Origin: Lacticaseibacillus baoqingensis
GTDB taxonomy: Bacteria > Bacillota > Bacilli > Lactobacillales > Lactobacillaceae
Length of the DNA stretch: 24,000 nucleotides
NCBI RefSeq assembly: GCF_003946165.1
Contig: NZ_RHOI01000036.1
Span: 2,212 to 26,211 of the forward strand
Direction: 5' to 3'
Within the stretch, counting starts at the first letter, position 1, and every line of letters begins with the position of its first letter. Below, piece after piece: positions 9,731 to 12,137 of this stretch. The translations under genes and the position numbers were made by a program. Below the pieces are notes generated by a model that saw nothing but the letters and a program-made list of their open reading frames with translations, ran no database searches and had not been told where the DNA came from.

Positions 9731-10843
9731 TCAATTACCGGCAACAACTTGATCACGCCCGCCGCGCTTAGCCGCATACAGATTCGCATCCGCACGAGCG
9801 ATCGTGATGTCATTGCGCTTGTCGCCAGCCATCACCTTCGTGATCCCAGCAGAAACGGTCAGGTGCAATTTAACTCCTGCCGTCGCGATGGTCAATTGCC
9901 GCAAATGCGCCACATAGCCATCCACGATCGCGCGCACTTGTTGATCAGTGGCCCCGCCAGCGATCAACAAGCTGAATTCTTCGCCGCCAGTGCGATACAG
10001 CGTACATGGAAACGCCGACTGATCAAGGTAAGTCTCCAGATCACTGGCAAACGCCTTGAGCACATCGTTGCCTGCCAAATGCCCATAAGTATCATTGATC
10101 CGCTTGAAGTGATCGATATCCAGCATCACCAAATGCACCGCCGGCATATTCCCATCTAAGCTCAATTGATGATACCGCCCAAAGTCGCTGGTGAATTTGC
10201 TCAAACTATGGACGCCAGTCAAGGCATCATGTTGATTATCGTACTCCAAGGTACTGGTTTTTTGTTGGCGATAAACCAACAAATAATCATACATATGCGC
10301 CAGCACGATCACAACGACAAAACAAACCCAAACTGCCAGCGTCTCGCCTAAAGGATAATGAAACGCATACATATCAAACAACCAATAAACCAAGCTGATC
10401 ACGCTTAAAACAAGGCCATGCCGCAGCCAGTTGGCTTTGATCCAATCTTGATACCAGTTGATCGGCAACAACAGCACCAAGATCAATACCTGCCATGCCA
10501 TCGCCCAGTAATTCCACTGCCAAAACGGCCATAAGGAGACAAAAAAGCCGACCAGCAGCCAGGCGAAAGCACGCCGATCCTGCAACCGTTTGGACACATA
10601 GATCAACGCGCCATTACGGATCGCATTGGCGGTCCAGGTGAATGTCGTGCCGAATAAGCGCAGCATACGCACAAACATGATGACAGCGAGCACATAAATC
10701 ACCACCGCCGCAGCCGCAGAGATCCGCCGGTGCAGCCAGCGCTGGACCAACTCCGGTCCGAGGTCTTCAACGATTTCCAGTGACGCCACGAAACCGATCA
10801 TAAAAAAGAAAGTCCAAAAAAATGTATTGCCAACTAATGCCAT
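9731..10843 (-). CDS. Membrane-bound diguanylate cyclase (multi-TM N-terminus plus GGDEF domain, GGEEF active site)
   Basis: 370 aa. The N-terminal ~190 aa is strongly hydrophobic. The C-terminus has DALTGV..., VMLDIDHFKRINDTYGH, RTGGEEF and SAGI. Confidence 0.9.
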   Translation of the reverse strand: MALVGNTFFWTFFFMIGFVASLEIVEDLGPELVQRWLHRRISAAAAVVIYVLAVIMFVRMLRLFGTTFTWTANAIRNGALIYVSKRLQDRRAFAWLLVGFFVSLWPFWQWNYWAMAWQVLILVLLLPINWYQDWIKANWLRHGLVLSVISLVYWLFDMYAFHYPLGETLAVWVCFVVVIVLAHMYDYLLVYRQQKTSTLEYDNQHDALTGVHSLSKFTSDFGRYHQLSLDGNMPAVHLVMLDIDHFKRINDTYGHLAGNDVLKAFASDLETYLDQSAFPCTLYRTGGEEFSLLIAGGATDQQVRAIVDGYVAHLRQLTIATAGVKLHLTVSAGITKVMAGDKRNDITIARADANLYAAKRGGRDQVVAGN

Positions 10844-10911
10844 GATGTTTTCCCCAATAAACTCACGTGTTTACCGTTAAGCATACCGCAACCCCGCACT
10901 GGTTGCCATTG

Positions 10912-10937
10912 AAAAAAGGCTGCCACCATGGCAGCCT
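10912..10937 (-). terminator. Intrinsic terminator 2 inside the GGDEF leader
   Basis: Minus strand: AGGCTGCCA-TGG-TGGCAGCCT followed by TTTTTT, about 70 nt upstream of the GGDEF ATG. Confidence 0.65.
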
Positions 10938-11030
10938 CTTCACGGAATAGATCGCCGCCGAAGCGGCACGATTTACACACACGTTGATCAGCTCGTTGAC
11001 GGTTCGGGGGAAAGATCAACAGAGCCTTGG

Positions 11031-11083
11031 AAAAGAACAAAACGACCCGCCGCAACAGGCCGAAGCCTCTGCGCACGGGTCGT
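11031..11083 (-). terminator. Intrinsic terminator 1 inside the GGDEF leader / end of a candidate sRNA
   Basis: Minus strand: ACGACCCG..GAGGC-TTCG-GCCT..CGGGTCGT followed by TTTGTTCTTTT. Confidence 0.6.
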
Positions 11084-11154
11084 CTCAAGCGTACCATCGA
11101 AATGGTCTGTACTTGAGTGAGCGGTCAAATTCACTTGTTCTAAATCCAAAAACT

Positions 11155-11183
11155 ATTTTACGGCTTGACGTGTCTTGACGCAA
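11155..11183 (-). promoter_or_regulatory. Candidate promoter driving the structured leader/sRNA
   Basis: Minus strand: TTGCGT (11183-11178), 17 nt spacer, TAAAAT (11160-11155). Confidence 0.45.
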
Positions 11184-11204
11184 CCCTAAAATGATTATTT
11201 TAAT

Positions 11205-11227
11205 AAAAAACCGCCTTTACAGGCGGT
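11205..11227 (-). terminator. Terminator of the WxL gene
   Basis: Minus strand: ACCGCCT-GTAA-AGGCGGT followed by TTTTTT. Confidence 0.75.
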
Positions 11228-11304
11228 CCGCCAGCTTTCCTTTGTCAGTTGAGCTTCGCGGCGATATAACTTAGCCAATACTTACACTTACTCCCCCACG
11301 CAAC

Positions 11305-11823
11305 TTACGAGGCATCAATGGGCCCGGCAAACAACATCCAGCGTAAGGCCGCATGATATGTTGTGCCTGGCTTGCCAGCTGGAATATACAACGCCACCGT
11401 TTTTAGCGCCGGCGCTGCACCAGCGGCTTTCACGACGACTTGTGCCGTCGGGTGCGCCGCTGTTTCCAGTTGTGCACCTGCTAATGGCTGGTGCGCATCA
11501 TCTGCAATCACACTCGCCTGAACTAACATCGCCCATGGACCATGCGCCGCAGCATCAATGGCTGCTTTGGTGCCATCGATTGGTGCCGTTAATGCCTGTG
11601 CTTGGCTGCCGCCAACGATGCGACCGAAGTCAACATCTGGCAAGGCTTGGATGGCCATCACACTCCCGGAGGCCTCCGTAAACGACACCGACGCCGTGCT
11701 TGCTTGCGTGTCGTCAGCCTCGACGACAACCGGCGCGCACCACGCCACTAGTCCGGCCAAACCCGCTAACAACACGAGTGACCGCACCTGAATAAGCTGT
11801 TTGATCAAAAACGATTCCCCCAA
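11305..11823 (-). CDS. Small secreted WxL-domain cell-surface protein
   Basis: Signal peptide (LVLLAGLAGLVAWCAPVVVEA). LPDVDFG motif and C-terminal YHAALRWMLFAGP, matching the YxxxLxWxLxxxP distal WxL motif. The real start may be the TTG at 11808, which follows a GGGGGA RBS. Confidence 0.7.
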   Translation of the reverse strand: MGESFLIKQLIQVRSLVLLAGLAGLVAWCAPVVVEADDTQASTASVSFTEASGSVMAIQALPDVDFGRIVGGSQAQALTAPIDGTKAAIDAAAHGPWAMLVQASVIADDAHQPLAGAQLETAAHPTAQVVVKAAGAAPALKTVALYIPAGKPGTTYHAALRWMLFAGPIDAS

Positions 11824-12137
11824 ACCGACTGATGATCACACATTTCTGCGTAAGAAGTCTATACTTTTATAGCACAAAACCAGCCGAAAAACCAGAAAAT
11901 TATGATTATATTACATAAAAATGAATCAGAGCGATTTTTCCTGCTTTGCTAAACACCATTGCAATGCGTTTATATACCATAAAAACACCAAATGCCTTGT
12001 ACAAAAGATAACCACGGGATTTTTCACGTCCTCGAGTCGTCTGACAACACTTTTTTGAAGATCTAGGGTATACTGCAAATATGATGGCGTAAACCATTGG
12101 TGTCCACCCACTATCAATTGTTTGGAGGAATGTCGCC

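Follow-up and report, generated by a model that had tools for sequence, protein, structure and literature searches.

The first ~115 nt of the RNA encoded on the minus strand at positions 10844-11183 of the window (the whole 24,000 nt stretch of DNA analysed here, to which all window coordinates refer) form a 5′ domain that is one member of a previously undescribed structured RNA family of the Lactobacillaceae. Using blastn and two covariance models (R1 and R2), we recovered 70 distinct copies of this domain in six genera, all belonging to the Lactobacillaceae. On balance we favour, with moderate confidence, a reading of the window RNA as a sensor domain with a conditional terminator, followed by an anti-Shine-Dalgarno effector hairpin and by read-through into a GGDEF gene. 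That the family as a whole consists of cis-regulatory conditional terminators of a c-di-GMP/WxL regulon we regard as highly probable.

Structure of the window RNA and its 5′ domain

The features read from the minus strand are collected in Table 1. An earlier note, made from the sequence of this DNA alone, had described a promoter, three UUCG hairpins, two intrinsic terminators and the start of a GGDEF gene about 70 nt past the second terminator, and all of these lie where it had placed them, the distance between T2 and the GGDEF ATG being 68 nt; a scan of the window detected no promoter-like site between the two. The UUCG loops are peculiar to the window copy, relatives carrying other loops, and the position of P5 is held in relatives by a hairpin of other sequence, GAGCCGUUUAAUCGGC. 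The note's view of the region as a structured, non-coding, riboswitch-like leader with two terminators was borne out by folding of the 307 nt stretch (z = −4.3, with 0 of 100 shuffles as good) and of its two halves (z = −5.3 for the 5′ domain and −4.1 for the 3′ half), and by a terminator scan of the window which detected both the T1 and T2 sites, each with a GC-rich hairpin and a U-run (T2 reading AGGCTGCCA-TGG-TGGCAGCCT at 10937-10917, then TTTTTT to 10912). The proposed TTGCGT-17-TAAAAT promoter is present, and a TTGCnn-17-TAnnnT arrangement stands at a fixed distance from the domain in those type-1 copies (copies followed by the conserved 3′ module described below) which retain upstream sequence, with differing spacer sequences; in the window it fell under the threshold of the consensus scan because its −35 box matches the consensus at only 3 of 6 positions. 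The transcript start, the stops and the read-through of the window RNA are all predicted.

Table 1 Positions of the window RNA, its parts and the adjoining genes.
Feature	Coordinates	Strand	Basis or remark
Promoter, TTGCGT (11183-11178), 17 nt, TAAAAT (11160-11155)	11155-11183	−	Sequence; comparative layout
Predicted transcript start	near 11147	−	Inferred from promoter position
5′ sensor-like domain, three-helix junction with built-in intrinsic terminator T1	11031-11147	−	Covariance models, covariation, fold
P1	11141-11135 paired with 11040-11034	−	5′ domain
J1/2 junction, GCUCAC	11122-11117	−	5′ domain
P2	11117-11084	−	5′ domain
P2 hairpin ACCAT-TTCG-ATGGT	11106-11093	−	Nested in CTCAAG (11117-11112)...CTTGAG (11089-11084)
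P3, long hairpin, cap GGC-TTCG-GCC at 11067-11058	11083-11042	−	5′ domain
U-tract after P3, TTTTGTTCTTTT	11042-11031	−	~107-116 nt from the start near 11147
T1 (P3 and U-tract), tail UUUUGUUCUUUU	ends at 11031	−	Terminator scan, folding
P4, hairpin with C-rich apical loop CUUUCCCCCGAACC (11014-11001), putative anti-Shine-Dalgarno effector	10991-11025	−	Kept in all type-1 copies
Conserved single-stranded block GUGUGUGUA (GUGUGUGCA in relatives)	10972-10980	−	3′-module listing
P5, small hairpin GCCGC-UUCG-GCGGC	10954-10967	−	Sequence
T2, intrinsic terminator, 9 bp stem AGGCUGCCA/UGGCAGCCU and U6	10912-10937	−	Sequence, terminator scan, folding
GGDEF diguanylate cyclase gene with N-terminal membrane region, ATG at 10843	9731-10843	−	Pfam PF00990, E=4.6e-27
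WxL-like secreted protein gene, 167 aa, TTG start at 11808	11305-11808	−	BLASTP
Intrinsic terminator of WxL-like gene	11208-11229	−	Terminator scan
G-rich ribosome-binding site of WxL-like gene, GGUUUGGGGGAAU	11814-11826	−	Sequence, pairing scan

The copies share one layout over ~105-125 nt: the promoter is followed by an A-rich strand, a junction ending in GCUCA, P2 and then P3, which opens with (G/A)ACGACCCGU and closes with CGGGUCGUUUU. The base of P3 (ACGACCCG/GGGUCG, including the CCC/GGG pairs) and the junction are almost invariant, whilst P2 and the distal part of P3 vary freely. GCUCAN was found in 66 of the 70 copies and NNACGACCCR in 69, at least five U among the nine bases after P3 in all 66 copies with a scorable tail, and a promoter-like pattern upstream of 41 of the 70. 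P1, formed between the A-rich 5′ strand and the U-tract with its following bases, covaries between copies (CAAG/CUUG, UUGAG/CUCAA and UUAAG/CUUAA, with the longer variants CAAGAACAA/UUGYUCUUG, UUGAGAA/UUCUCAA and UUAAGAACAA/UUGUUCUUAA). Because of this pairing, the first terminator of the earlier note forms one arm of a three-helix junction: it is terminator-like, as proposed, but P3 is an integral and conserved part of the domain. Minimum-energy folds of the window copy and of one relative gave exactly the same three-helix junction.

The window copy scored 100.3 bits with R1, in whose seed it was included, and 85.6 bits with R2. Its domain shares 70-77% identity with copies in relatives, and in several species of the genus blastn picked up 2-4 partial matches in each genome. 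A MAFFT/RNAalifold alignment, which was not fitted to any covariance model, supported P2 and P3 with compensatory changes in 12 of 24 pairs. The alignment of 47 sequences to R1 is fitted to that model, and hence biased towards the structure; in it 87% of cells were paired, against 70% after shuffling of columns and 41-47% with slid partners, and double changes occurred in 27 of 33 pairs.

Inspection of the aligned copies revealed no conserved antiterminator competing with P3. Two candidates were discarded as not conserved: pairing of GCUCA with the GGGU of the 3′ arm amounts to merely 4-5 weak pairs, and pairing of a 5′ AACGAC with GUCGUU is confined to one EAL sub-lineage. GCUCAC could pair with the GUGUGUGCA block (6 of 7 positions, with a U-U mismatch), both partners being invariant.

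Distribution and gene context of the family

Within the genus, R1 matched 14 of 37 genomes and the broader R2 matched 22, three of which (G043, G047 and G020) were rejected as plain terminators at gene ends in genomes without EAL or GGDEF genes. True matches therefore occurred in 19 of the 37 genomes, 18 of them with EAL genes and the remaining one with a GGDEF gene, so that within the genus the motif is restricted to genomes carrying GGDEF or EAL genes. All 13 genomes lacking an EAL match were devoid of true matches, and five EAL-positive genomes had no motif match at all; these counts overstate the co-occurrence, since genomes of related species are not independent data points. EAL-domain matches number ~9-22 per 2-3.4 Mb genome in one clade of the genus, and 0 or 1-4 in other species.

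In a 151-genome sample of the Lactobacillaceae, true copies were present in five further genera. Samples of the order and the class (151 genomes each, including the window's own) yielded no convincing copies outside the Lactobacillaceae, the matches there being plain terminators and a T-box, all of them false. Dropped on inspection were seven marginal R2 matches at family level, every match at order level and, from the class sample, the T-box; plain terminators scored far below true copies and were recognisable as false. A looser pattern, GCTCAC-N(10-40)-GACGACCCG, run over genome contigs was abandoned, the matches listed being chance occurrences in high-GC genomes. Single genomes contained up to eight matches. 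The window's own genome has four copies: the window copy, two in front of tandem EAL genes (C6:4808-4902 and C6:5807-5899) and one heading a small RNA (C2:42790-42904). The tandem genes (C6:4700-6600, plus strand) encode stand-alone EAL proteins of 233 and 219 aa, each with a short-form leader of the build UGCUCAA - hairpin - AUACGACCCG - hairpin - GGGGUCGUUUUUU.

The earlier note had recognised no known riboswitch family, in agreement with our searches of Rfam 15. No family reached its gathering threshold anywhere in the window; a permissive search of 10700-11350 (E<=10) returned noise only, and one of 13 diverse other copies (E<=5) returned nothing overlapping the domain. Over these searches the noise consisted of isrD, a snoRNA and ctRNA, beside an unrelated T-box elsewhere. 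A text search of the literature likewise found no description of the family.

We assigned a class to the gene downstream of each of the 70 copies and checked representatives against Pfam. EAL genes follow 33 copies, WxL genes 13 and GGDEF genes 7, whilst 17 have no open-reading frame of these classes within ~600 nt; five of the latter are cut by a contig end and most of the others lead into structured RNA. The EAL proteins are stand-alone and of ~220 aa, and EAL leaders were also found in the five further genera. In the leaders the promoter comes first, then the domain with its U-tract, and last the ribosome-binding site and start codon; in EAL and WxL leaders ~10-25 nt part the U-tract from the latter two, so expression of these genes would require the terminator to be overcome. 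The copies display features generally sought in riboswitches: the domain is structured and conserved, its helices covary, its junction bases are kept, and it sits in cis between promoter and open-reading frame together with an expression platform, P3 and the U-tract being terminator-like in all 66 copies scored. In four loci (L178, L163, L164 and L172), ATTTCACA(A/C) boxes are repeated in the ~125 nt spacer between a type-1 T2 and an EAL gene, and may be an operator for a transcription factor.

A gene-association signature of this kind led to the discovery of the known c-di-GMP riboswitches. As the motif marks EAL, GGDEF and WxL genes, in a genome where the Rfam models found neither a c-di-GMP-I nor a c-di-GMP-II riboswitch, a c-di-GMP-linked signal is the leading candidate for the input. 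Among the observations counting against the favoured reading, only a minority of EAL and GGDEF genes carry the motif (in the window's own genome it precedes 2 of 9 EAL and 1 of 6 GGDEF matches), and a number of copies stand at the front of small RNAs that have no c-di-GMP gene beside them. Moreover, the same domain precedes cyclase and phosphodiesterase genes alike, so a simple feedback logic is not obvious. The link to c-di-GMP genes drawn in the earlier note is supported by the gene context of the family, and the GGDEF ortholog in the relative G013 also follows a type-1 RNA, but the suggestion that the device gates c-di-GMP synthesis holds only in part, as the family mostly precedes EAL and WxL genes and is not specific to the GGDEF gene. 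Overall, the note's riboswitch-like or attenuator reading was broadly right.

The 3′ module and its complementarity to a WxL ribosome-binding site

In type-1 copies the conserved 3′ module starts ~10 nt past T1 and comprises the hairpin with the C-rich loop (CUUCCCCCAAACC in place of the window's sequence), the conserved block, a small hairpin and, in all of these copies, a terminator at the position of T2. The gap between T1 and this module is too short to hold a promoter, which argues that T1 is read through at least sometimes, whether through leakiness or regulation. The second half of the window RNA had been put forward as a second riboswitch-like element, a view we replace with that of an effector hairpin: its C-rich loop forms 13 contiguous pairs (one of them G-U) with GGUUUGGGGGAA, which at 11826-11814 serves the WxL-like gene immediately upstream as ribosome-binding site. 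The product of this WxL-like gene matches, over its full length (BLASTP, E=1e-13), a Pfam-verified WxL protein encoded behind a type-1 RNA in another species.

Across the 2.86 Mb genome just two sites can pair with all 13 loop bases, the antisense of the RNA itself and this ribosome-binding site. Four other species have a WxL gene, a type-1 RNA and a GGDEF gene in this order, and in them loop and Shine-Dalgarno sequence match perfectly over 12 bp; in two further species the C-rich hairpin and the Shine-Dalgarno sequence (GGUUCGGGGGAAAC) lie within one leader of the orthologous WxL gene, with G-C in place of an A-U pair. The closest synteny partner, G013, has no G-rich WxL ribosome-binding site nearby. 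As the pairing site is unique in the genome, and both synteny and pairing recur in other species, an anti-Shine-Dalgarno function is supported, and the C-rich loop probably acts as such an effector on the adjacent WxL gene. The terminator of the WxL-like gene ends only ~25 nt 5′ of the −35 box of the RNA, and read-through from that gene would put the anti-Shine-Dalgarno hairpin inside its own 3′ UTR.

In the four species sharing the WxL-RNA-GGDEF order, the GGDEF ribosome-binding site lies within ~20 nt of T2, so there the whole type-1 RNA is also the GGDEF leader. A cis anti-Shine-Dalgarno action on the GGDEF gene was rejected as a general role, with only a 7 bp match in the window and none in orthologs. 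G-rich GGGGGA ribosome-binding sites occur across the genome in front of EAL, WxL-cluster and EPS genes but also of housekeeping genes, and we therefore claim no enrichment. Sites of the UU(U/C)GGGGGAA type at C42:1007, 4747 and 5575 and at C23:110645, belonging to an apparent exopolysaccharide cluster (a priming sugar transferase and its neighbours) and to a secreted protein probably of a WxL cluster, could be targeted by the C-rich loop as well.

The small RNA at C2:42790-43075 (plus strand) in the window's own genome represents a second build, type-2, also seen at L177, L169, L170, L158 and L145, in which the 5′ domain, under a promoter of its own, leads into 3-5 hairpins with loops CUUGGGAG or GCUUGGGGC and then into a terminator, with no open-reading frame. 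These loops resemble Shine-Dalgarno mimics, and could be sponges for C-rich RNAs or for a protein. The pairing core between type-1 C-rich loops and type-2 CUUGGGAG loops is just ~5 bp in most species, and any pairing of the two is speculation. At L182, L183, L201 and L203, in another genus of the Lactobacillaceae, the 5′ domain leads into long structured non-coding stretches that contain either C-rich loops (UUCCCCCCAAUU) or a G-rich loop (CUUCGGGGGAUUCAUGA) imitating a ribosome-binding site together with its start codon.

Proposed mechanism, alternatives and comparison with known RNAs

In the reading we favour, a ~235 nt RNA would be transcribed from the promoter in Table 1, and its 5′ domain would act as a cis-acting sensor, with termination at T1 depending on a signal tied to c-di-GMP. 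The likeliest signal would be c-di-GMP or a closely related nucleotide such as pGpG, recognised directly by the RNA in the manner of a riboswitch. Read-through of T1 would produce the 3′ module, whose C-rich loop would pair with the ribosome-binding site of the WxL gene, T2 would end the RNA after this module, and read-through of T2 would yield the GGDEF mRNA. We infer termination at T1 and T2 in vivo, and its regulation, from the arrangement of the elements, and the signal may act in either the on or the off direction. With its three-helix junction, invariant junction bases and freely varying arms across six genera, the domain looks like an aptamer, and direct sensing of a small molecule stands at slightly under an even chance; c-di-GMP as the particular ligand is a plausible but more tentative suggestion. 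As a broader and equally tentative proposal, the GCUCA/ACGACCCG three-way junction may constitute a third, structurally unrelated class of c-di-GMP- or pGpG-sensing riboswitch, restricted to the Lactobacillaceae and controlling stand-alone EAL, GGDEF and WxL genes, which in some loci, the window included, would gate a trans- or neighbour-acting anti-Shine-Dalgarno small RNA, and for which the G-loop RNAs may serve as sponges.

The strongest competitor is a protein-dependent attenuator, in which the GCUCA junction and the ACGACCCG/GGGUCG stem base would bind a terminator or antiterminator protein, possibly itself responsive to c-di-GMP, and the RNA would bind no small molecule. The most conserved bases of the domain lie in the helix base and the adjoining junction, as they do in RAT/LicT-type and PyrR-type protein sites, and would equally suit a protein-binding site; the lack of a conserved competing antiterminator helix on inspection also points this way, and the gene association fits equally well. 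We nevertheless rate this explanation as rather unlikely, as no candidate protein gene adjoins the inspected loci, and invariant junction bases combined with variable, covarying arms in six genera are the usual look of an aptamer.

Less probable again is an independent small RNA gene without sensing, the 5′ domain being a structural, stability or processing module shared by a paralogous small RNA family, its terminator merely leaky and its proximity to GGDEF, EAL and WxL genes the result of co-inheritance in one genomic island. Such a gene would account for the type-2 copies heading RNAs with no open-reading frame behind them, for the window copy's own promoter and strong T2, and for a C-rich loop suggestive of action in trans. 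It does not sit well with the 53 of 70 copies which have a promoter on one side and the beginning of an EAL, GGDEF or WxL gene on the other, in many cases with only 10-25 nt from U-tract to start codon, as genes behind such a terminator would stay silent unless it were overcome, nor with the EAL linkage being kept in five other genera. That the element is a dispersed repeat or an ordinary terminator without regulatory function, or that the 87 aa open-reading frame at 10834-11097 is a genuine gene, is very improbable indeed, even though the element is multi-copy and an open-reading frame spans it. The frame is present in the list of open-reading frames and, as the earlier note remarked, lacks a ribosome-binding site and crosses both T1 and T2; we rejected it as a gene on these grounds and because indels between copies in P2 and P3 are not multiples of three. 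A repeat is further opposed by the constant orientation and position of the element relative to promoters and start codons and by the compensatory changes which preserve its helices, and a plain terminator by the far lower scores such terminators reach.

Little is understood about c-di-GMP signalling in lactobacilli, and the RNA family described here points to a compact regulon that unites EAL phosphodiesterases with GGDEF cyclases and WxL surface proteins, in a clade where each genome has ~9-22 EAL matches. Whatever the sensor, the family would connect second-messenger level with the expression of surface adhesins in food and gut lactobacilli in a form open to direct testing, and it supplies ~70 natural sequence variants for biochemistry. 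If the domain binds a nucleotide messenger directly, it would be a new riboswitch class in which the terminator hairpin is a conserved arm of the aptamer.

The c-di-GMP-I riboswitch (GEMM-I, RF01051) is likewise a 5′ leader built on a three-helix junction, often followed by an intrinsic terminator, and stands before the same kinds of genes, GGDEF, EAL and surface adhesin genes; one example, the Bc2 RNA, lies upstream of a collagen-adhesion protein gene in Bacillus thuringiensis (PMC4933901). It differs in its conserved bases, the RNA described here having no conserved GNRA tetraloop or receptor, and in the terminator hairpin, which in the present family is built into the motif as a conserved arm. 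The RF01051 model found no match in the window at gathering, in 10700-11350 at E<=10 or in 13 copies at E<=5, and its best score in the window's own genome, away from the window RNA, was 21.6 bits against a cut-off of 35. The c-di-GMP-II riboswitch (RF01786) is also a Firmicute leader RNA tied to c-di-GMP-controlled genes, but has a pseudoknotted fold in place of the three-way junction seen here, and its model matched neither the region nor, at E<=1, the whole genome. The nearest RNA described in print is the ykoW motif, an orphan three-stem junction upstream of an EAL-domain gene in which P1 overlaps the Shine-Dalgarno sequence, a weak riboswitch candidate reported only from Thioalkalivibrio with 11 representatives (Narunsky et al. 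2024, PMC11109978). Going by its published description, that motif is set apart by its gammaproteobacterial hosts and Shine-Dalgarno overlap, as opposed to Lactobacillaceae and a terminator here.

The C-rich loop recalls a different group of RNAs. The Rfam model for the RsaE/RoxS-type small RNAs (RF01820) had no match in the window or region. C-rich loops of these Firmicute RNAs pair with G-rich Shine-Dalgarno regions, and the C-rich motif here is similarly complementary to a G-rich Shine-Dalgarno sequence (13 bp, at a single genomic site, with conserved gene order and a compensatory change in other species); the two differ in sequence, in the class of target (WxL) and in the sensor-like domain upstream of the effector. 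In overall design the closest parallels are EutX of Enterococcus and Rli55 of Listeria, small RNAs controlled by a B12-dependent riboswitch, whose effector sequesters EutV. There, as proposed here, a sensor with a conditional terminator gates a downstream effector and a second terminator ends the long form, but ligand and fold are different, and the effector in the window RNA is a C-rich loop complementary to a ribosome-binding site. Should the 5′ domain bind a nucleotide messenger directly, the window RNA would be a new example of a riboswitch gating a regulatory small RNA.
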